DNA from: Phycisphaerae bacterium
GTDB lineage: Bacteria; Planctomycetota; Phycisphaerae; WQYP01
Length of the DNA stretch: 64,000 nt
NCBI GenBank assembly: GCA_035524355.1
Contig: DATKPA010000019.1
Span: forward strand, 34,117 to 98,116
Direction of reading: 5' to 3'
Positions 12,904-39,005 of the stretch are shown piece by piece. Numbering within the stretch: the stretch's first letter is position 1; each line of letters begins with the position of its first letter. The notes under the pieces are model-generated. The model ran no database searches and was not told the origin of the DNA. It saw nothing but the letters and a program-made list of their open reading frames with translations. Made by a program: the position numbers and the translations under genes.

Positions 12904-13283
12904 GAACGACGATGCTTTCCGCTGCGAGGCCCGCCGAGCGTCGATCTACACCTCCGCGCTTCGAACAAAGCGCAGACGGCGATGACACGGTCAGGGGGCG
13001 CCGGAGCTGTTGACGAAAGATGCTTCCGGGGAAAGAAGCAGAGCTTCCTATGGGATCAACACTTAGAATAATCGAGATCCTCCCGACCGTAAAGCCACCA
13101 CTTCCCCAGATTGACATCCCCGCCCGATAACCTGCTTCCCCCCAAGCGCCGACCTCTACTAACACAAGCGAATCCCATCCCCCATGCGACTCCCTGCTCA
13201 TTCTGAATTCGCTTATTCACTCATTCCGAATTCCACCCTCCCCCGTTATCCTACCCCACTCCCTTTTTACGGAGATTCTTTCC

Positions 13284-14600
13284 ATGCCCACACACTCCCC
13301 CTCCCCCCGCTCCGCCACCACCGGCATCGCCGTCATCGGCTGCGGCATCATCGGCTCCGCTGTCGCCGACGCACTCCTCAAGGAAACCAAACTCTTCCGC
13401 GAACGCTCCGGCATCACCCTCCAGCTCCGCCACATCGTCGAACGCGACATCCAACGCACCAAAAACGCCGGCATGCCCGCCAAACTCCTCACCGACAACT
13501 ACAACACCGCCCTCAATGACAAAAACACCCACATCGTCGTCGAACTCATCGGCGGCCTCGAACCCGCACGAACATTTGTCTTGAAGGCGCTCAAGGCCGG
13601 CAAACATGTCGTCACCGCCAACAAATACCTCCTCGCCGTCCACGGACACGAAATCCTCCACGCCGCCAAAAAGGCCAAACGCTGCGTCCAGTTCGAAGCC
13701 TCCTGCGGCGGCGCCATCCCCATCATCGCCGCACTCACCCAATCCCTCCTCGCCAACGACATCTCTCGCGTCGTCGGCATCGTCAACGGCACCTGCAACT
13801 ACATCCTCACCCAGATGACCCAGTCCGGCCAATCCTACGCCGACGCACTCGCCGGCGCACAAGCCGCAGGCTTCGCCGAACGCGACCCCACCTTCGACGT
13901 CAACGGCACCGACTCCGCCCACAAACTCGCCATCCTCTCCTCACTCGCCTTCGGCGCAGAAGTCCCCTTCGACAAAATCGAACGCACCGGCATCGACACT
14001 CTCTCCGATATCGACCTCAAATTCGCCAAAGAATTCGGCTACGTCTGCAAACTCCTCGCCATCGGCGAAAAGACAGATGGCGGCCTCTCCCTCCGCGTCC
14101 ACCCAACCTTCGTCTCCGCCGACCAGCTCCTCGCCAACGTCCACGGCTCCTTCAACGCCATCTCCGTCCACGGCCACGCCGCCGGCCAAACCCTCTACTA
14201 CGGCCGCGGCGCCGGCGGTAAACCCACCTCCTCCGCCGTCATCTCCGACATCCTCGACATCGCCCTCGGCACCGCCCCCCTCCTCTTCGAAAAACTCCCC
14301 CTCCTCACCAAAAAACGCACCCTCCCCTTCATCCCCAGCACCCAAATCATCTCCCGCAACTACCTCCGCGTCACCGCCCTCGACGTTCCCGGCGTCATGG
14401 CCCAAATCACCAACATCCTCTCCAAACACAAAATCTCCCTCGCCGGCCTCAACCAGCACGAATCCAAAGCCGGCCAACCCGTCCCCATCATCATCACTAC
14501 CCACGAAGCCAAAGACGGCGACATCCTCAAAGCCCTCGCCGAAATCGACCAGCTCAAACCCATCACCGCCAACACCATCCGCATCCGCGTTCTTGCGTAG
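13284..14600 (+). CDS. hom: Homoserine dehydrogenase with C-terminal ACT domain
   Basis: GCGIIG, VVTANK, FEASCGGAIPII, GIVNGTCNYIL, YYGRGAGG. Confidence 0.95.
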   Translation: MPTHSPSPRSATTGIAVIGCGIIGSAVADALLKETKLFRERSGITLQLRHIVERDIQRTKNAGMPAKLLTDNYNTALNDKNTHIVVELIGGLEPARTFVLKALKAGKHVVTANKYLLAVHGHEILHAAKKAKRCVQFEASCGGAIPIIAALTQSLLANDISRVVGIVNGTCNYILTQMTQSGQSYADALAGAQAAGFAERDPTFDVNGTDSAHKLAILSSLAFGAEVPFDKIERTGIDTLSDIDLKFAKEFGYVCKLLAIGEKTDGGLSLRVHPTFVSADQLLANVHGSFNAISVHGHAAGQTLYYGRGAGGKPTSSAVISDILDIALGTAPLLFEKLPLLTKKRTLPFIPSTQIISRNYLRVTALDVPGVMAQITNILSKHKISLAGLNQHESKAGQPVPIIITTHEAKDGDILKALAEIDQLKPITANTIRIRVLA

Positions 14601-14711
14601 GTCGAATGACTACTCAAAATTAGGTCAGCGCAAGCCTCACGTCCCGCCCGCCTGCGCTCTTAAAATACGCTCATGCCGTTCCTCTGTAATCACGAGCCGG
14701 GGAATTGAGCC

Positions 14712-15467
14712 ATGACACATTTTCGCACGCCCCTCACCGTCACCCTTTCCCTCTGCACCTTCGCCGCCGTCGCACACGCCCTCGTCCTCGGCCCCGGCGA
14801 CTACAACTTCGGCCCGCTCCCCGACGCCGATCCCACCTCCCTCCCCACCCTCGCCGGCTCCGTCGTCGCCTCTCAATCCCTTCCCTTCACCGTCACCCTC
14901 CAAACCACCCCCGTCGGATTCACCGGCACTCTCAACAACTGGATCACGCGCGAATCCTCCGGCACTCTCGACTTCTATTACCAGATCTCCATCGACACAA
15001 CCTCATCCTACTCCTATCCCATCACCCCGCCCTTCACCAAGCCCCTCGGCCTCGCCCCCATTTACTCCTCCGGCTTCGACCACTGCTTCACCGACTTCTA
15101 CCACCCCACCAATCCCGCAGACGTCACCCCCTCCTTCCCCTTCCGCTCCCCCGACGGCGATACCCTCCGCGTCGGCTACAGCGACGGCATCGTCAACTTC
15201 AATCTCGCCCCCGGCGACACCTCCTCCTTCCTCTTCCGCACCGACGCCACCGACTTCCAATACACCGGCACCACCGAACTTACCTTCCTGATCCCCCTCG
15301 ACAACCCCCTCGACCCCGGCGATCCCTTCGATTCCGCCGCAACCGACTCCATCCTCCTCCCCACCTTCGCCCCCGTCGGCCAAATCGCCCCCGAACCCGC
15401 CTCCCTCTTCTTGCTCCCACTCGCCCTCCTCCCCATCTCCCTCCTCCGCCGCCCATCACGCGCATAA
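14712..15467 (+). CDS. PEP-CTERM exported protein (cargo 1)
   Basis: Signal peptide and C-terminal APEPASLFLLPLALLPISLLRR. Confidence 0.85.
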   Translation: MTHFRTPLTVTLSLCTFAAVAHALVLGPGDYNFGPLPDADPTSLPTLAGSVVASQSLPFTVTLQTTPVGFTGTLNNWITRESSGTLDFYYQISIDTTSSYSYPITPPFTKPLGLAPIYSSGFDHCFTDFYHPTNPADVTPSFPFRSPDGDTLRVGYSDGIVNFNLAPGDTSSFLFRTDATDFQYTGTTELTFLIPLDNPLDPGDPFDSAATDSILLPTFAPVGQIAPEPASLFLLPLALLPISLLRRPSRA

Positions 15468-15573
15468 CCTGTCCTGCCCCGACCTCCCCGTTATAATGTG
15501 CCCCCCACGGTAAAGTTCGACTCTAACCCGCGCGTCGCTCCATCCACGCGCCTTGCTCAACGAGACCACAAAT

Positions 15574-15729
15574 ATGAAATACGTCATCATCATCCCCGAC
15601 GGCGCCGCCGATACCCCCATCCCCGACCTCCACCACAAAACCCCTCTCGACGTCGCCAATAACCCCAACATCGACTGGGTCGCCACCCACGGCAAGCCCG
15701 GCACCATCCGCATCCGCGTGCTGCAATAA
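15574..15729 (+). pseudogene. Chimeric fragment: apgM 5' end fused to a hom 3' end
   Basis: MKYVIIIPDGAADTPIPDLHHKTPLDVANNPNIDWVATHGKPG matches the 16399 start; the end TIRIRVLQ* shares CACCATCCGCATCCGCGT with hom 14573-14590. Confidence 0.9.
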
Positions 15730-15794
15730 CAGCAAGGTTTCTGATATAATTGCCGATGAAGTTAACGACGGATGTCATCGTGGAGTCCTAGAAA

Positions 15795-16004
15795 ATGAAG
15801 GCGGATTGGCTTACAAAGGTGGATCGGACCGCTGTAAGCGTCACCTCCCTTACTGAGTCGGACGAACGGGATTTCTGGTTGGCGCGAACAGTCGAAGAAC
15901 GCCTGATGGCTCTCGAAGCAATGCGGCGGACGCTCTATGGATACAACGACCCTCCACCCCGACTTCAAAGAGTTGTTGAAGTTGTTCAACGAGGAGAACG
16001 TTGA
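15795..16004 (+). CDS. Small protein paired with a nucleotidyltransferase (putative antitoxin-like)
   Basis: 69 aa with FWLARTVEERLMALEAMR; TATAAT near 15745; overlaps the next gene. Confidence 0.7.
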   Translation: MKADWLTKVDRTAVSVTSLTESDERDFWLARTVEERLMALEAMRRTLYGYNDPPPRLQRVVEVVQRGER

Positions 16005-16383
16005 GTACCTTCTCATCGGATCGTACGCCGTTGCCGTCTATGGATATCCCCGCGGCACTGTCGACATGGACCTCTGGATCGCCGTGAATCCCGCCAATGC
16101 CGACCGCGTGATGAGTGCACTCCGAAAATTCGGCTTCGGCAACGTAGTTGATCGCGAATGGCTCCTCGATCCTAAGAAAATCGTTCGGATGGGGGTCCCG
16201 CCGTACCGGATCGAGATCAGCACTGAAATCAGTGGCGTCAATTTCGACGAATGTTATCCTCGTCGCCTTGCCGCTGTGGTCGATGGAATTCCCACGCAAG
16301 TGATTAGTCTTCCTGACCTGAAGATAAACAAACGCGCCGCGGCGCGCGACAAAGATTTGAACGACCTCAAGAATCTTCCATAA
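15937..16383 (+). CDS. Nucleotidyltransferase-fold protein (DUF6036-like)
   Basis: YLLIGSYAVAVYGYPRGTVDMDLWI and NKRAAARDKDLND. Confidence 0.8.
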   Translation: MDTTTLHPDFKELLKLFNEENVEYLLIGSYAVAVYGYPRGTVDMDLWIAVNPANADRVMSALRKFGFGNVVDREWLLDPKKIVRMGVPPYRIEISTEISGVNFDECYPRRLAAVVDGIPTQVISLPDLKINKRAAARDKDLNDLKNLP

Positions 16384-16398
16384 CCCAAGTGAGTTGAA

Positions 16399-17613
16399 AT
16401 GAAATACGTCATCATCATCCCCGACGGCGCCGCCGATACCCCCATCCCCGACCTCCACAACAAAACCCCCCTCGACGTCGCCAATAAACCCAACATCGAC
16501 TGGGTCTCCAAAAACGGCAAGCTCGGCACCGTCCGCACCACGCCCCCCAACTATTCCGCCGGCTCCGACGTCTGCACCCTCTGCCTCCTCGGCTACGACC
16601 CCGCCAAATACCACCCCGGCCGCGCCCCACTCGAAGCCGCCGCCATGGGCCTCCAGCTCGACCCCGACCTCGACTGGGTCTTCCGCTGCAACCTCGTCAC
16701 CATCATCGACGGCACCATGATGGACCACTCCGCCGGCCACATCGGCGACAAGGAAGCCCGCATCCTCCTCGAAGAAGTCCGCAAGTCCCTCGCCCCAGAC
16801 TCCGGCACCACACCCCTCACCTTCTACCCCGGCGTCAGCTACCGCAACCTCATGACCTACAGGGGCGGCGACTTCACCGGCCTGAAAACCACCCCGCCCC
16901 ACGACATCCCCGAACAACCCATCAAATCCTACATGCCCAAAGGCAAAGGCGGCGACATCCTCAGCAGCCTCATCACCAAATCCCACGAAATCCTCAAAAA
17001 CCACGAGATCAACCTCACCCGCCGCGACCTCGGCGAAAACGAAGCCACCCACATCTGGCTCTGGGGCCAGGGCAAAGCCGCCAACGTCCCCTCCTTCCAG
17101 TCCCGCTTCAAAAAATCCGGCGCCATGATCACCGCCGTCGACCTCCTCCGCGGCATCGCCAACCTCCTCGGCTGGACCAACCTCGACTCCCCCGGCATCA
17201 CCTCCTACCACGACACCGACTACGCCGCCCAGGGCCAAACCACCATCAACGCCCTCGACCACTACGACATCGTCTGCTGCCACGTCGAAGCCCCCGACGA
17301 AGCCTCCCACGCCGCCAACTTCACCGAAAAAGTCGACTCCATCGAAGCCATCGACAAACACGTCGTCGGCCCCGTCCTCGAAAAACTCAAAACCTACCCC
17401 GAATGGCGCATGCTCATCATGCCCGACCACGCCACCCAGTGCATGACCCGCAAGCACTACGACGAACCCGTCCCCTTCGCCATCGCCGGCACCGGCATCC
17501 CCCCCAAACAAAACCTCCAACTCCCCTACACCGAATCCGCCGCCAAACAATCCGACCTCCACATCCAGCAAGGCTACGACCTCATGGAATACTTCCTCTA
17601 CGGCAACAAATAG
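16399..17613 (+). CDS. apgM: Cofactor-independent phosphoglycerate mutase family protein (ApgM-like; proposed homoserine kinase type)
   Basis: IIIPDGAAD, GSDV, HVEAPDEASH and PDH metal ligands; located near hom. Confidence 0.88.
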   Translation: MKYVIIIPDGAADTPIPDLHNKTPLDVANKPNIDWVSKNGKLGTVRTTPPNYSAGSDVCTLCLLGYDPAKYHPGRAPLEAAAMGLQLDPDLDWVFRCNLVTIIDGTMMDHSAGHIGDKEARILLEEVRKSLAPDSGTTPLTFYPGVSYRNLMTYRGGDFTGLKTTPPHDIPEQPIKSYMPKGKGGDILSSLITKSHEILKNHEINLTRRDLGENEATHIWLWGQGKAANVPSFQSRFKKSGAMITAVDLLRGIANLLGWTNLDSPGITSYHDTDYAAQGQTTINALDHYDIVCCHVEAPDEASHAANFTEKVDSIEAIDKHVVGPVLEKLKTYPEWRMLIMPDHATQCMTRKHYDEPVPFAIAGTGIPPKQNLQLPYTESAAKQSDLHIQQGYDLMEYFLYGNK

Positions 17614-17681
17614 GGAACCCGTAGCGTCAGCGCCGGTGAGCCAACCTCTCCCACCACCAGCCCTCTCCCCGCGCACGCGGC

Positions 17682-17743
17682 GCAAACGCTCTCCCCAAAA
17701 ACAAACCCCCGTCATTTAGCCCCGAGTGATGAACACGGGGGGC
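17682..17743. repeat. About 60-bp repeat with GC hairpin, copy 1 (copy 2 at 19990-20048)
   Basis: AAACCCCCGTCATTTAGCCCCGAGTGATGAACACGGGGGGC versus AAACCCGTCATTTAGCCCCCCGCGATGAACGCGGGGGGC. Confidence 0.8.
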
Positions 17744-17850
17744 TTTCGCGCGCGCACAGGCCCACACGCACTCCTCCCAACCCACGAAATAAATCCGATC
17801 GAATAAAACACCCGTCATCCGGCACTTCACTCCCAAAACCACAACTTCCC

Positions 17851-19137
17851 GTGCCCTCTAATCGCGAGACCCTCATGCCACAAGCCACGAAACTCGGCAT
17901 CCCACGCGCCATTCTCCTTGGCGCCGCTTCCGCAGTTGGCTCCTTCTCGATGCGCGCACACGCCACAACCATCTGGTCCGCCGGACCCACCGACCTCAAC
18001 TTCTCCCTCGCCACCGGCGCCGACGTCACCCTCCCGCAAAATCAGGACCGCATCACCCCCACCGTCTGGGTCACCCGCAACTCTTTTCACGGCATATTCA
18101 ATGCCTACTCGGAGACCTTTTTCGGCAGCTCCAGCCCCGCCGACACGGAATGGGCCTTCTCCGGCCTCGGCGGAAATCCCACTTTCGCCTACGGAGCCGG
18201 CGCCGCCCTCTTTCCCACTCTCTCCTTCACCCCCTGGGGAACTTCCTTGGGCTCCACCGGTGGCCTTCAATTCAACATCACCTCCCATCCCGGCGTCGTC
18301 CATCTCATCACCAATGACACCTACATCGACATCAACTTCACCGCCTGGGGTTCTCACGGCGACAGCAGCTTCGCCTACACCCGCGCCACCGGTCTCATCT
18401 CCGCACTCTGGAACGGCTCCGCCGGCAACTGGTCCAACTCCACCAACTGGTCCACCAATCCCGCCTTCCCCAACAACTCCGCCAACTTCCACTTTGCCGC
18501 CGCCATCAACGCCGGTTCCGCTCTTCTCGACGTCATGGCCACCGTCAGTTCCCTCACTCTCGCCGGCTCTGCCAACGCCTGGACCTCCAACCTCGACCTC
18601 GCCAGCAACTCCCTCATCGTCCAGCCCGATCCCGCCGCAAAAGCCACCGCCTTCGCCACCTTGAACAACCAAATCGCCTTCGGCCAATCCCACTTCGCCG
18701 GAGGGGGAGCGGCAGGGGCTTCGGGGGCGGCGGCCGGCATCACCGATTCCACACTCCCCGCCAACTTCGGCATCGCTCTCCTCGACAACGCCCTCACCCA
18801 CTTCACCACCTTCCGCGGACAACCCGCGGACGCCAACTCACTCCTCCTCTCCCCTGAACTCCTCGGCGACGCCAACGCCGACGGACACGTCGACCTCACC
18901 GACCTCTCCACCGTCCTCAACAACTTCGGAACCGCCACCCCCAACTGGACCGACGGCAACTTCGACAACGCCCCCACCATCGACCTCACCGACCTCTCCG
19001 CCGTCCTGAACAACTTCGGCCAATCCAACCCCAACGCCAACACCGCCGGATTGGCCACCGCCACGCCCGCGCCCGAACCCGCCTCCCTTACAATCCTGCT
19101 TCTCGCCGGGCAAATCCTGCAACGCCGCCGCAAGTAA
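17851..19137 (+). CDS. PEP-CTERM protein with dockerin-like repeats (cargo 3)
   Basis: Signal peptide, QDRITPTVWVTR domain, GDANADGHVDLTDLSTVLNNFG and GNFDNAPTIDLTDLSAVLNNFG, APEPASLTILLL...RRRK; start may be 17875. Confidence 0.88.
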   Translation: MPSNRETLMPQATKLGIPRAILLGAASAVGSFSMRAHATTIWSAGPTDLNFSLATGADVTLPQNQDRITPTVWVTRNSFHGIFNAYSETFFGSSSPADTEWAFSGLGGNPTFAYGAGAALFPTLSFTPWGTSLGSTGGLQFNITSHPGVVHLITNDTYIDINFTAWGSHGDSSFAYTRATGLISALWNGSAGNWSNSTNWSTNPAFPNNSANFHFAAAINAGSALLDVMATVSSLTLAGSANAWTSNLDLASNSLIVQPDPAAKATAFATLNNQIAFGQSHFAGGGAAGASGAAAGITDSTLPANFGIALLDNALTHFTTFRGQPADANSLLLSPELLGDANADGHVDLTDLSTVLNNFGTATPNWTDGNFDNAPTIDLTDLSAVLNNFGQSNPNANTAGLATATPAPEPASLTILLLAGQILQRRRK

Positions 19138-19182
19138 CGCGGGCATCCTGCCCGCCTATGCCCCGCAGGGCATTCGATCGCC

Positions 19183-19298
19183 ACCCCGCCAAACAAAACA
19201 TCCAACTCCCCTACACCGAATCCGCCGCCAAACAAGGCGACCTCCACATCCAGCAAGGCTACGACCTCATGGAGTATTTCCTGTACGGCAACAAGTAA
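19183..19298 (+). pseudogene. Displaced copy of the apgM 3' end (copy 2)
   Basis: PAKQNIQLPYTESAAKQGDLHIQQGYDLMEYFLYGNK* versus apgM PPKQNLQLPYTESAAKQSDLHIQQGYDLMEYFLYGNK*. Confidence 0.93.
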
Positions 19299-19491
19299 CG
19301 CGGGCATCCTGCCCGCAATTCATGGGAAAAGCCGACGGATTCGATCCGTCGGTCCCCTCTGCGCACACACCCCTCTCGCCCCCCCACGCAACCGCTCCAA
19401 TTCCATCGCCACTTTTCCTTTGCCTCCAACGCCTCACCCCGCTAAATTCACCCCACACACGCCTCGACCCTCATTCAACAAGGAGCCACCC

Positions 19492-19944
19492 ATGTCCTCC
19501 CCCCTCCGCAAAACCTGGCAGGACTGCAAAAAACAAATGGGCCCCAACTCCGACAAACAATTCAAAGAAGACCTCGGCCCAACCCTCGACAAAGCCCAGG
19601 ACGCCTTCGACGCCGTCGTCGCCGAAAACAAAAGGAAGATCAAGGTCGAAGGATATTCCGATTCCACCGCCGACCTCGCCAAACTACGCTCCAAGACCGC
19701 CACCGCCCTCCCCCTCCACGAAAAAGTCCACAAGGTCGCCACCACCTACAAAAGCACCGTCGACAAAATGGACAAAAAAGCCCCCGGCGTCGCCAACGCC
19801 CTCAAGTGCCTGAACGACATCCTCACCCATTTCCAAAACCAGGAAAACCTGCTGGTCCAGCACTGCCCCAGCGAAAAAGACGCCGAACGCTTCAAACAAG
19901 CCTACGCCACCGCCACCCTCAAAAAAATGAACCCCGGAATCTAA
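19492..19944 (+). CDS. Hypothetical Lys-rich helical protein (cargo 4)
   Basis: AGGAG RBS before ATG 19492; 150 aa containing FKEDLGPTLDK. Confidence 0.75.
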   Translation: MSSPLRKTWQDCKKQMGPNSDKQFKEDLGPTLDKAQDAFDAVVAENKRKIKVEGYSDSTADLAKLRSKTATALPLHEKVHKVATTYKSTVDKMDKKAPGVANALKCLNDILTHFQNQENLLVQHCPSEKDAERFKQAYATATLKKMNPGI

Positions 19945-20167
19945 TCGCCGCCCCCGTTCCCCACCGACAATCCCCCCACCGCCCCGCCCCAAACGCCCCC
20001 TCCCCAATCAAACCCGTCATTTAGCCCCCCGCGATGAACGCGGGGGGCCACCGGCACCCACCCAACCAGACACAACGCCCCGACTACTCGACATCCCCCC
20101 GCCCCACCAACATTCACCCGCGGCCCTCGAAACCGCGCCCGCAACTCCAACCCACCGCCACACCTAC

Positions 20168-20266
20168 CAAAACCTCCAACTCCGCTGCACCGAACCCGCC
20201 GCCAAAAACCGACCTCCATATCCAACAAGGCAACCCCGACCGCGCTTGGAACTACGTCCTCCACCG
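20168..20266 (+). pseudogene. Degenerate copy of the apgM 3' end (copy 3)
   Basis: CAAAACCTCCAACTCCGCTGCACCGAACCCGCCGCCAAAAACCGACCTCCATATCCAACAAGGC...TGGAACTACGTCCTCCAC aligns to 17509-17605 with indels. Confidence 0.82.
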
Positions 20267-20459
20267 CGCTGTCCGTCCGGCATTTCAATACGACGGCTGG
20301 CCGTTCTCCGTGTTGTCGCCCTGGACGAGACAAATCATTGCTTGCCACTCCAGTTCGAATGCCTTTAGGGCAGTGCGAAGGCCATGAAGGGAATCTTTCG
20401 CAGCGTAGTGCCGACGAGCTAAACCCACCGCATGACACGAAAGGTCCATCGATCCTTTA

Positions 20460-20491
20460 TGACATTCACTTGCATTTACAGTTTGATTGCA
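20460..20491. promoter_or_regulatory. Putative tandem metalloregulator (Zur-like) boxes
   Basis: TGACA-TTCAC-TTGCA and TACAG-TTTGA-TTGCA, 17 bp apart, upstream of the COG0523 gene. Confidence 0.5.
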
Positions 20492-20568
20492 TACAATGGA
20501 TCAAGTTCTGAAAGCGATGTGGGATGTTCGCAATTGCCGCCCGACGGCGGCATGTATGGAGTGGAAAA

Positions 20569-21783
20569 ATGCAAAGTCGTCTTCCGGTCACGGTGCTCAG
20601 CGGATTTCTCGGGGCTGGAAAGACGACGCTGCTGAATCACGTGCTGTCCAGCCGCGGAAAGCTGCGCGCGGCGGTGATTGTCAACGACATGAGCGAAATC
20701 AACATTGACGCCCGTCTCGTGGAAGGGGGCGGAGCGGCGCTGCGGCGGGCCGACGAGAAGCTCGTCGAGATGACCAACGGATGCATTTGCTGCACCCTGC
20801 GCGACGATTTGTTGAAGGAGGTCGCAGCATTGGCGCGTGAGGGGCGGTTTGATTATCTCCTGATCGAAGGCACAGGCATCGCCGAGCCGCTGCCGGTTGC
20901 CATGACCTTTTCGTTTAAGGATGAACAGGGGATTGGCCTGTCGGATCTGACTCGTCTTGACACGATGGTGACGGTGGTTGACGCCCAGAATTTCCCCCGT
21001 GACCTGGGATCGCCCGATAATCTTTCCGACCGGCGGCTCGGCACAGATGTCAACGATACGCGGACTATCGCAGATCTATTGATCGATCAGGTGGAGTTTG
21101 CCGACGTGATCGTCGTGAACAAGGCGGATCTTGTTTCGCCTGAGGAACTGGACCAGATTTCCGCGGTGATGCGGAAGCTGAACCCGGGGGCGAAGGTGAT
21201 TCCGTCGGTGCGGGGGAATATTGACCTGTCTGAGATACTCAATACCAGCCGGTTCGACATGGAGAAGGCCAGTCAGTCTGCCGGATGGATTCGGGAACTG
21301 AACAACAAGCACACGCCTGAGACAGAAGAGTATGGCATTGGCAGTTTTGTGTTCCGGGCGTTGCGGCCGTTTCATCCACTGCGGCTGCACGCCTTCATTG
21401 AGCAGGGGCTGCCGGGTGTTGTGCGGTCAAAGGGATTCATCTGGATCGCATCGCGGAATGATTTTGTGGGGGTCTGGGGCCACGCAGGTGCATCGCTGAC
21501 GATCGATCCCGGCGGTAAGTGGTGGGCAAGCTCGCACCGCAGCGAATGGCCGGAGGACCCCGCAACGCGATCCTATGTTGAGTCGATCTGGCGCGAGCCG
21601 TGGGGGGACCGTCGGCAGGAGCTGGTGGTCATCGGTGCAAACATGAACAAAGAGTCGCTGCAGTCGCGGCTGGAAGCCTGTCTGTTGAATGACAAGGAAA
21701 TGGCTGAAGGCCCGCAGGCATGGGCTCGCTACGAGGATCCGTTTCCAGCCTGGCAGATATTCGAGTCGATCAGTGCGGCCTGA
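20569..21783 (+). CDS. COG0523 (CobW/ZigA-like) zinc metallochaperone GTPase
   Basis: LSGFLGAGKTT, GCICC, IEGTG, NKAD, CobW_C (VVRSKGFIW, GDRRQELVVIG). Confidence 0.93.
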   Translation: MQSRLPVTVLSGFLGAGKTTLLNHVLSSRGKLRAAVIVNDMSEINIDARLVEGGGAALRRADEKLVEMTNGCICCTLRDDLLKEVAALAREGRFDYLLIEGTGIAEPLPVAMTFSFKDEQGIGLSDLTRLDTMVTVVDAQNFPRDLGSPDNLSDRRLGTDVNDTRTIADLLIDQVEFADVIVVNKADLVSPEELDQISAVMRKLNPGAKVIPSVRGNIDLSEILNTSRFDMEKASQSAGWIRELNNKHTPETEEYGIGSFVFRALRPFHPLRLHAFIEQGLPGVVRSKGFIWIASRNDFVGVWGHAGASLTIDPGGKWWASSHRSEWPEDPATRSYVESIWREPWGDRRQELVVIGANMNKESLQSRLEACLLNDKEMAEGPQAWARYEDPFPAWQIFESISAA

Positions 21784-38582: not shown

Positions 38583-38936
38583 ATGAGTACCAGTGCACAG
38601 GCGTATTACGAGGGGAATGCGGCGGCGATGAAGCCGGTGCGGGCGGCGATGCCGGACGTGATCAGGGGATTCGGCGCGTTGCATCAGGAAACGATGAAGG
38701 CGGGGGCGCTGGGCGTGGCGGAGAAGGAGTTGATTGCGCTGTCAATCGGGCTGGCGGTGCGGTGCGAGAATTGTGTGTATGCGCATGTGCGGGCGGCGCT
38801 GAAGGCGGGGGCGACGCGGGAGCAGGTGTTGGAGGCGGCGGGGGTGGCAGTGCTGATGCAGGGTGGGCCGACGTATACGTATCTGCCGCGGGTGGCGGAG
38901 GCATTGGAGGCGTTGGAGACGCCGGTTGCGGGGTGA
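38583..38936 (+). CDS. Carboxymuconolactone decarboxylase/AhpD-like protein
   Basis: KELIALSIG, CENCVYAH, MQGGP; AGGAG RBS. Confidence 0.9.
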   Translation: MSTSAQAYYEGNAAAMKPVRAAMPDVIRGFGALHQETMKAGALGVAEKELIALSIGLAVRCENCVYAHVRAALKAGATREQVLEAAGVAVLMQGGPTYTYLPRVAEALEALETPVAG

Positions 38937-39005
38937 CGGAGGTTAAACACAAAGGACACGAAGAGCACGAAGGACCACGAAGTCGGTTTTGGTTGGAGAT
39001 TTGAC

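Follow-up and report, generated by a model that had tools for sequence, protein, structure and literature searches.

The stretch of DNA considered here (the window) comprises 64,000 nucleotides from a Phycisphaerae bacterium (GenBank assembly GCA_035524355.1, contig DATKPA010000019.1, positions 34,117 to 98,116, forward strand), and its subject is an open reading frame (ORF) of 51 codons at 15574-15729, between hom, which encodes homoserine dehydrogenase, and a gene initially annotated as apgM. The host is a soil planctomycete known from a draft metagenome-assembled genome of 5,286,193 bases in 128 contigs, 85% complete and 3% contaminated (G000). It was compared with 44 genomes of the same family and, by a scan, with metagenome contigs; two relatives recur below, G001, of the same genus, and G041, of another genus in the family. 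In the window, hom is followed by a gene for 251 amino acids, a leader of 106 nt, the 51-codon ORF, an AT-richer spacer of 65 nt, an ORF for 69 amino acids, a gene for 148 amino acids and the 'apgM' gene for 404 amino acids. The last of these most likely encodes the alternative homoserine kinase HomK and is called homK from here on. All features lie on the forward strand:

13284..14600, forward: live hom (homoserine dehydrogenase), ending in TIRIRVLA and stop; Pfam Homoserine_dh (1e-61), NAD_binding_3 and ACT; CACCATCCGCA at 14573-14583.
14712..15467, forward: cargo 1, a secreted protein of 251 amino acids with a PEP-CTERM-like tail (APEPASL, hydrophobic stretch, RR); G+C fraction 0.65, G-C skew -0.57.
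15468..15573, forward: putative leader of the displaced homK allele, CCCCGTTATAATGTG, as read directly from the letters.
15574..15701, forward: relic of the homK 5' end, second allele, as far as codon 43 or so; seven codons differ from those of the live gene, 6 non-synonymously and 1 synonymously.
15702..15712, forward: joint, CACCATCCGCA, common to homK (16527-16537) and hom (14573-14583) at 10 of 11 bases.
15706..15729, forward: relic of the hom 3' end, second allele, with its final 7 codons (IRIRVLQ) and stop; GTG CTG CAA as in the live hom of G041.
15730..15794, forward: spacer that follows hom in the cassette-bearing allele, with TGATATAAT (extended -10-like box); aligns with G041; G+C 0.43.
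15795..16004, forward: cargo 2a, an ORF for 69 amino acids without a family, overlapping the next gene by 68 nt; 93% amino acid identity to G041.
15937..16383, forward: cargo 2b, a DUF6036 nucleotidyltransferase of 148 amino acids (Pfam PF19502, 29.1 bits against a cut-off of 23.6); 89% amino acid identity to G041.
16399..17613, forward: live 'apgM', most likely HomK (alternative homoserine kinase); CACCGTCCGCA at 16527-16537; TIGR02535 and NF003242.

The 51-codon ORF, which ends in TAA, is a chimera. Its first part is 93.5% identical over 139 nt to the start of the live homK (16399-16537); the similarity begins at the ATG, and the sequences upstream are unlike. From 15702 onward, the end of hom takes over. 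The initial annotation had described just such a switch from a near-copy of apgM to the hom C-terminus, together with a microhomology between the two genes, and both are borne out by the alignments: at the switch, the live homK reads CACCGTCCGCA and hom reads CACCATCCGCA, which agree at 10 of 11 bases, with CACC exact, and the exchange point lies in or beside this CACC (15702-15705). The 18-mer CACCATCCGCATCCGCGT is found only at 14573-14590 and 15702-15719, both in the window and on the two strands of the whole genome, and every sub-word of at least 15 nt is likewise confined to these two sites genome-wide. The window holds two matches to it with at most two mismatches, against 0.01 expected (100 shuffles). 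A match common by chance had been named at the outset as the possible flaw in the proposal; with two sites only in 5.29 Mb, a chance origin is ruled out.

Past the joint, the ORF reads GTG CTG CAA TAA and the live hom GTT CTT GCG TAG. The valine, leucine and stop codons thus differ synonymously, as first noticed, and in addition an alanine is replaced by glutamine. In the ORF, the first 43 or so codons are those of a second homK allele, and the last eight, with the stop, continue the frame with the end of a second hom allele. The frame is preserved since hom and homK use the same preferred codons for Thr-Ile/Val-Arg at this point, and selection on the ORF is therefore not required as an explanation.

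The second hom allele exists as a live gene. A search of the 44 family genomes for the nucleotidyltransferase of the cassette (cargo 2a and 2b) led to G041, whose hom ends in NTIRIRVLQ and stop, with the sequence GTGCTGCAATAG; its terminus, ...ATCCGCGTGCTGCAATAG, has the codons of the relic but another stop. The tail of the ORF is therefore the terminus of a different functional hom allele, as had been suggested from the codons alone. The gene order in G041 is hom, the small ORF, the nucleotidyltransferase and 'apgM', and the offsets of these from the hom stop equal the offsets in the window from the fossil stop. In a nucleotide alignment, the two loci are unrelated before the joint, where G041 has hom and the window has homK, and collinear from CACCATCCGC, with 86% identity over 1933 columns (window 15702-17609). 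The spacer after hom aligns as well, its TGnTATAAT box included. The segment 15702-16537 thus corresponds to one collinear stretch of G041, from the tail of hom over the cassette to the start of homK, and the sole novel joint is at 15702-15712.

The genes hom and homK are adjacent in 17 relatives, and what lies between them varies:

12 genomes: spacer of 13-96 nt, no content.
G001 (same genus): 388 nt, a small membrane ORF.
G012: 459 nt, a truncated cassette.
G041, G017 and G004: 671-685 nt, the cassette, which in G017 and G004 is a diverged two-gene form (43-47% amino acid identity).
This window: 1798 nt, the PEP-CTERM-like gene, the relic and the cassette.

These contents, and the cassette standing alone in G041, mark the hom-homK gap as a slot for exchangeable cargo. 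The claim that two intergenic alleles are stacked in the window is accordingly supported for one of them, since hom-[cassette]-'apgM' is found alone in relatives; for the other, hom-[PEP-CTERM]-'apgM', no single-cargo form was found in the genomes searched. In G004, hom (locus L044, 4944-6231) aligns in three pieces that overlap by up to about 20 nt, which suggests a frameshifted gene, either broken or affected by the indel errors of a long-read assembly.

Base composition separates the two cargoes. The cassette has a G+C fraction of 0.53-0.54 and a G-C skew of about zero (for cargo 2b, 0.53 and -0.05), against 0.62-0.65 and -0.42 to -0.57 in the native genes around it. By composition, the cassette is foreign and the PEP-CTERM-like gene native, which makes the PEP-CTERM version the likelier resident. 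Genome-wide, the sense strand of native genes is C-rich and G-poor (skew -0.36 to -0.57) and acquired cassettes are near zero, so that skew marks foreign DNA in this genome.

The homK part of the ORF differs from the live gene in seven codons, six of the differences being non-synonymous and one synonymous. Three of the seven are common to other lineages: CAC (His) at codon 21 to G041 and G017, CCT at codon 24 to G001 and G012, and GCC (Ala) at codon 37 to four more distant relatives (G010, G012, G004 and ESF1). Polymorphisms that are found in other lineages argue against a simple duplication within this genome. Two further changes, K30N and L42P, are unique to the relic and fall at residues conserved in all relatives compared, which we read as the kind of change expected of decay. 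The leader CCCCGTTATAATGTG resembles the leader before homK in ESF1 and G001. By its codons, the homK part of the ORF is allelic and did not arise by copying the live gene; we read it as an allele of its own, which later decayed.

How did the two versions come to lie one after the other? The best explanation as a whole, to which we give a probability of about 75%, is that the ORF is a non-functional scar between two versions of the hom-homK slot. That it is a real scar of allelic recombination is held with high confidence, and it was probably produced by one illegitimate and one homologous junction. What follows on the direction of the exchange, with the version that was resident, on its route and on how the DNA got into the cell is inference. 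Version one would have had a PEP-CTERM-type gene and then homK with its own leader; version two, which stands alone in G041, would have had the nucleotidyltransferase cassette directly after a hom ending in VLQ and stop. A piece of version two, comprising the last 27 nt of hom and the cassette and extending into homK, would have entered a cell that carried version one. On the homK side, it would have undergone homologous recombination with the resident homK. On the hom side, the fragment presumably held too little hom homology for this, so that an illegitimate join was made at the 11-nt microhomology CACC[A/G]TCCGCA, in frame in both hom and homK, and the cassette would thus have been added rather than swapped in. 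The start of the resident homK (131 nt) would then be stranded before the hom tail, with a complete homK kept downstream.

The most likely route would be a Campbell-type insertion, in which the microhomology closes a fragment some 0.83 kb long into a circle and one crossover within the first 131 nt of homK then inserts it. By analogy with published cases, we consider it a plausible candidate with somewhat less than even odds. The same product could be reached by homology-facilitated illegitimate recombination (HFIR) with the joint inside the anchor, or by a microhomology-primed template switch, and these two together are put slightly lower again.

Scars of exchange that strand a gene end are of a known and ordinary kind; what is new here is the HomK score, the two 3' relics described below and the recurrence at at least 12 other loci. 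In the minimal mobile elements of Neisseria, homologous recombination swaps one gene cassette for another between conserved neighbours. The hom-homK gap resembles these in being one slot with lineage-specific cargo and no mobility genes, the 17 relatives having a short spacer in 12 cases, the cassette in three, its truncated form in one and a small membrane ORF in one; replacement is clean there, whereas at the present locus an imprecise exchange left one version behind the other. Integrative elements that target gene ends carry a substitute end and leave attL/attR repeats. They too have gene-end direct repeats flanking the insert and a complete live gene, but here there is no recombinase domain in the ORFs tested, the cargo is 0.6-0.8 kb and the repeats are alleles that have diverged by 6-7%.

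The closest experimental parallel is the Campbell-type insertion of Amarir-Bouhram et al. (2011, PMC3240628). In that study, E. coli received DNA with one-sided homology, and 56 of 60 clones had a duplication of the homologous segment, of 109-950 bp in the 14 clones sequenced, explained by a partly degraded molecule that was re-closed and then inserted by a single crossover; true HFIR was seen in 4 of the 60. The duplication outcome matches the product seen in the window, which favours circle closure and a single crossover. Both share an insert flanked by a direct duplication (here 139 nt on the 5' side, 114 nt on the 3' side and 77-298 nt at other loci; for the 5' pair, 15574-15712 against 16399-16537 at 93.5% identity) and a single non-homologous joint that closes the circle, with no recombinase needed. 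The donor in that study was a laboratory plasmid delivered by conjugation, whereas here a natural chromosomal fragment from a related species is envisaged; here, too, the closing joint is an in-frame microhomology of 11 nt, and the circle is a putative one.

HFIR, described in transformable bacteria by de Vries & Wackernagel (2002), Prudhomme et al. (2002) and Meier & Wackernagel (2003), as summarised in PMC3240628, PMC5361080 and PMC2884548, combines a homologous anchor on one side with a microhomology joint of 3-10 bp on the other and puts foreign DNA beside a conserved gene. In the window, homK after the cassette is 81-97% identical to relatives (150-nt windows), as expected of the homologous junction, and the joint has its exact CACC within 10 of 11 matching bases. 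In those sources, the deletion that usually accompanies HFIR is about the size of the insert, whereas here there is a duplication and nothing essential was lost. The genome has ComEC and DprA genes, which speak for a capacity for natural transformation only. HFIR has also been proposed for the displacement arrays of type VI secretion system (T6SS), Rhs and contact-dependent inhibition (CDI) loci (Kirchberger et al. 2017, PMC5361080), in which a module enters via a conserved upstream anchor, the old module and its stranded end are kept, and relics stack. Those arrays carry polymorphic toxins with retained immunity genes under selection; here, the anchor is biosynthetic and short dead gene ends are what is kept.

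Several observations weigh against the proposed exchange between two slot versions, or against parts of it. At codons 37-42, next to the joint, it is the live copy and not the relic that is G041-like. A circle with a G041-like donor predicts a G041-like relic near the joint, and therefore decay, or a donor that was not G041-like, must be invoked. Classical HFIR, according to PMC3240628, gives insertion with deletion and not duplication; here, 131 nt of homK are duplicated and none of the recipient is deleted. No Ku gene was found in the genome (85% complete), so end-joining would have to be annealing-based. A protein search of the 44 family genomes gave no hom-[PEP-CTERM]-'apgM' allele, the matches being 32-34% identical and at other loci in 3 genomes, and the metagenome scan for it gave 5 loci at 31-37% identity, all of them away from hom and homK, so that one parental version is reconstructed rather than seen. 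The identity profiles of hom and homK against G001, G041 and G017 are mosaic, with no clean change-point, and do not tell which version was resident. Finally, the sequence is a metagenome-assembled draft, and its support from sequencing runs comes from assembled contigs rather than from raw reads.

Two further relics of homK came to light when the locus was compared with relatives, both downstream of the live gene. All features are again on the forward strand:

17851..19137, forward: cargo 3, a protein of 428 amino acids with a PEP-CTERM-like tail; the family of its C-terminal domain is greatly expanded in the genus.
19132..19155, forward: 24-nt exact repeat, AAGTAA and the hairpin GCGGGCATCCTGCCCGC, with a second copy at 19293-19316 after relic 1.
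19184..19298, forward: relic 1 of the homK 3' end, the last 38 codons and stop, 93% identical to 17499-17612.
19492..19944, forward: gene for 150 amino acids, after relic 1 in the window and directly following homK in G017 and ESF1.
20155..20267, forward: relic 2, an older copy of the homK 3' end that contains indels and is 80-83% identical.

Relic 1 is separated from the live homK by the second PEP-CTERM-like gene, cargo 3. Eight of its codons differ from the live gene, five of them synonymously and three non-synonymously (stop counted), and most of the differences are common to G017, ESF1 or G001. No such repeats were seen in the loci of eight relatives compared by self-alignment. A donor with homK followed by the second PEP-CTERM gene was not found among the relatives either, where the matches were to paralogues of the C-terminal domain only. 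A hairpin-forming sequence of 36 nt occurs at 17708-17743 and again at 20013-20048 (89% identical), 95 nt after the live homK and 70 nt after the 150-codon gene, respectively; it is probably a conserved terminator that bounds a second variable slot.

Could the relics on the two sides of homK have arisen together? In a single double-ended event, the 5' relic and relic 1 would be the ends of one resident homK whose middle was replaced by a 3.5-kb donor block (15702-19183) consisting of the hom tail, the cassette, a complete homK, the terminator and the second PEP-CTERM gene, up to the hairpin. The two relics do add up to both ends of one gene with only the middle missing; they are similarly diverged from the live gene (93.5% over 139 nt and 93% over 114 nt), both carry polymorphisms of other lineages, and relic 1 is succeeded by the gene that in G017 and ESF1 comes immediately after homK. 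Such an event would, however, require two illegitimate joints at once, and it leaves the substitution patterns unlike each other, with six non-synonymous changes to one synonymous in the 5' relic and three to five in the 3' relic (stop counted). In addition, the arrangement of homK and then a second PEP-CTERM gene occurs in no relative, and the older relic at 20155-20267 points to independent recurrence on the 3' side. We regard the double-ended event as rather unlikely.

A tandem duplication within the genome is less probable still. Here, the segment from the hom tail to homK codon 44 would have been duplicated by unequal exchange at the microhomology, and the first copy of the cassette would later have given way to the PEP-CTERM gene, by replacement or by loss. 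Tandem duplications typically have their joints at microhomologies, and the identity of the cassette to that of G041 (86-88% at the nucleotide level, against 85-91% for the flanking genes) is compatible with long residence. Yet three of the seven codon differences between relic and live gene are found in other lineages, so that the two were already different alleles; the live hom ends in VLA and the relic in VLQ, with different codons, which means that the adjacent hom would also have to have been replaced, and two or more events are required in all.

It is very improbable that the ORF has been kept as a functional small gene or leader peptide, controlling, for instance, read-through into the cassette and homK. 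Its frame is intact, and it has a native start codon behind a native leader and a genuine stop; however, the in-frame join follows from the shared codons, the ORF was seen in this genome only, with no counterpart in the eight self-aligned loci, and K30N and L42P alter conserved residues. Moreover, the homK part ends at codon 43, before the catalytic serine, which is residue 56 in BT2402 according to the GapMind 2026 preprint. An assembly or chimeric-read artefact in a genome mixing two strains can be dismissed for practical purposes: although the draft is fragmented and incomplete (128 contigs, 85% complete, 3% contaminated) and related strains with other letters occur in the samples (runs X2 and X4), an overlap of 4-11 nt is too short to be bridged in k-mer assembly, a Logan contig from a second sample (run X2, record 12) covers 15574-15953 with no differences, the relic has substitutions of its own and the same architecture is found at 12 other loci. 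Among the contigs of four runs over 13200-20600, no listed joint skips either cargo; the joints listed lie elsewhere, with sides of 20-38 letters, and contigs cannot show absence.

The cargo genes themselves have few known relatives. Cargo 1 has no Pfam match at E <= 0.01 and no NCBIfam match at E <= 0.05, and cargo 3 has no NCBIfam match at E <= 0.05, the Pfam scan having covered cargo 1 only. The model of the PEP-CTERM sorting signal matched neither cargo 1 (Pfam, NCBIfam) nor cargo 3 (NCBIfam), and the label 'PEP-CTERM' for both is a putative one, from a motif seen by eye (PEP, hydrophobic stretch, RR). The best relatives of cargo 1 are 31-37% identical and lie at other loci. The C-terminal 200 residues of cargo 3 contain two dockerin-like repeats and the PEP-CTERM-like tail; G000 and G001 have 39 scored matches each to this C-terminal family, none of which adjoins homK, and most of the other family genomes have few or none. 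The cassette is a candidate toxin-antitoxin pair, the large gene passing the DUF6036 cut-off and the small ORF having no family; PADLOC and NCBIfam gave no match for either. DUF6036 was the only family that Pfam and NCBIfam found in the ORFs of the slot, which hold no transposase or integrase, and the ORFs tested between hom and 19944 hold no integrase or other recombinase domain in the same two databases. The two cassette genes overlap by about 65-68 nt in different frames (15937-16004), an overlap that is kept in G041, G017 and G012 (loci L022, L003 and L005) and could be an odd form of coupling or a frameshift site. A consensus promoter scan of 14550-16450 gave no sigma-70-type site, and the TGnTATAAT boxes after the hom stop were recognised by eye only.

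The product of the gene after the slot, initially named apgM, passes the phosphoglycerate mutase model NF003242 (485 bits, cut-off 426). It passes TIGR02535, the model of a proposed homoserine kinase, as well (483 bits, cut-off 446.3), and the gene is a same-strand neighbour of hom, both here and in 17 relatives. The GapMind 2026 preprint reports that an E. coli thrB mutant is complemented by TIGR02535 proteins (HomK), whose genes typically lie next to hom. In HomK, a glutamate is expected at the position of E299 of BT2402, which is a lysine in mutases. From its scores and its place, the protein is thus most likely the alternative homoserine kinase HomK. The conserved adjacency to hom fits this assignment, by which the slot would lie inside a gene pair of the threonine pathway.

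Is the locus an isolated case? Comparison of the genome with itself gave 92 local direct-repeat pairs (60-600 nt, at most 8 kb apart), 42 of which passed a stricter filter (at least 85% identity, 60-320 nt long, 300-5000 nt apart). Three of these are the pairs at the homK locus; from the other 39, 14 were picked by eye for study and are not a random sample. In 12 of the 14, the end of a housekeeping gene flanks a cargo of low G+C content, the 3' end in ten and the 5' end in two. The ten, in the order live gene, cargo and stranded end, involve radA, a flavin adenine dinucleotide (FAD) oxidase, an aldehyde dehydrogenase, 3-deoxy-D-arabino-heptulosonate 7-phosphate (DAHP) synthase, a deformylase-domain gene, fumarase, tgt, dprA, a pyrK-like gene and a mutY-like gene; the two involve a P-type ATPase and acetolactate synthase. 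The remaining two repeat loci (contigs C77 and C80) gave no clear gene-end picture. The 12 loci in G000 are:

C6:42131-43226, C42:47122-48153, C120:38640-39547, C68:49990-51098
C117:4073-5092, C107:28448-29311, C87:46974-47849, C63:148677-151182
C40:73167-74419, C103:880-3136, C15:28566-30884, C21:121355-124616

The stranded copies at these loci are 110-258 nt long and 87-97% identical to the live gene ends. Across the 14, the cargoes have a G+C fraction of 0.52-0.61 against 0.53-0.66 in the flanks, and in most cases the flanks have a much stronger G-C skew than the cargo. Eight cargoes contain a Pfam domain of a toxin or antitoxin (Gp49 with a helix-turn-helix domain, ParE in three, PIN in two, AbiEii and a sub-threshold MqsA-like zinc ribbon); of the other six, one has a DNA methyltransferase, and the remaining five hold other genes or could not be assigned. 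The empty site that corresponds to the tgt scar is present in G001. For the radA scar, no relative with the single cargo was found, the G041 relative of its cassette being on another contig than radA. A dispersed repeat of about 50-90 nt, 83-95% identical between copies, is present on numerous contigs, both here and in G001, G041, G017, G004 and G010; one copy abuts the stranded tgt end (locus L078, about 1920-2012, equal to G000:C87:47820-47912) and another lies at 38905-38982 of the window.

The tight fit of the cargo between gene end and relic at these other loci is explained most simply as ascertainment, since a fragment that reached the homologous far flank would be swapped in cleanly and leave no scar. 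A more ambitious idea, which we put forward tentatively and think more likely wrong than right, is that integrase-free cassettes, mostly toxin-antitoxin pairs with a methyltransferase module besides, may spread in this Phycisphaerae lineage with the end of a neighbouring housekeeping gene as homing arm: gene end and cassette would be closed into a circle and inserted by one crossover, stranding a gene end, and toxin addiction would then penalise loss by recombination between the repeats. We found no description in the literature of toxin-antitoxin cassettes flanked by gene-end repeats, in a search too thin to claim their absence from print.

For annotation, these results mean that the ORF at 15574-15729 is better labelled a relic than a gene, and that an 'apgM' beside hom should be annotated as a probable substitute for homoserine kinase. 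For the biology of these bacteria, the locus offers a well-documented natural case of gene addition without the machinery of a mobile element, in which both parents of the joint can still be read and the donor arrangement survives down to the codon level. The microhomology is explained by shared codon usage, and imprecise exchange has stacked the versions of the slot instead of swapping them. The recurrence of such scars around toxin-antitoxin cassettes provides a testable idea of how cassettes without mobility genes travel and persist; if it is true, the opposition of toxin addiction and repeat-mediated loss would explain why toxin-antitoxin pairs dominate among the scars that persist.

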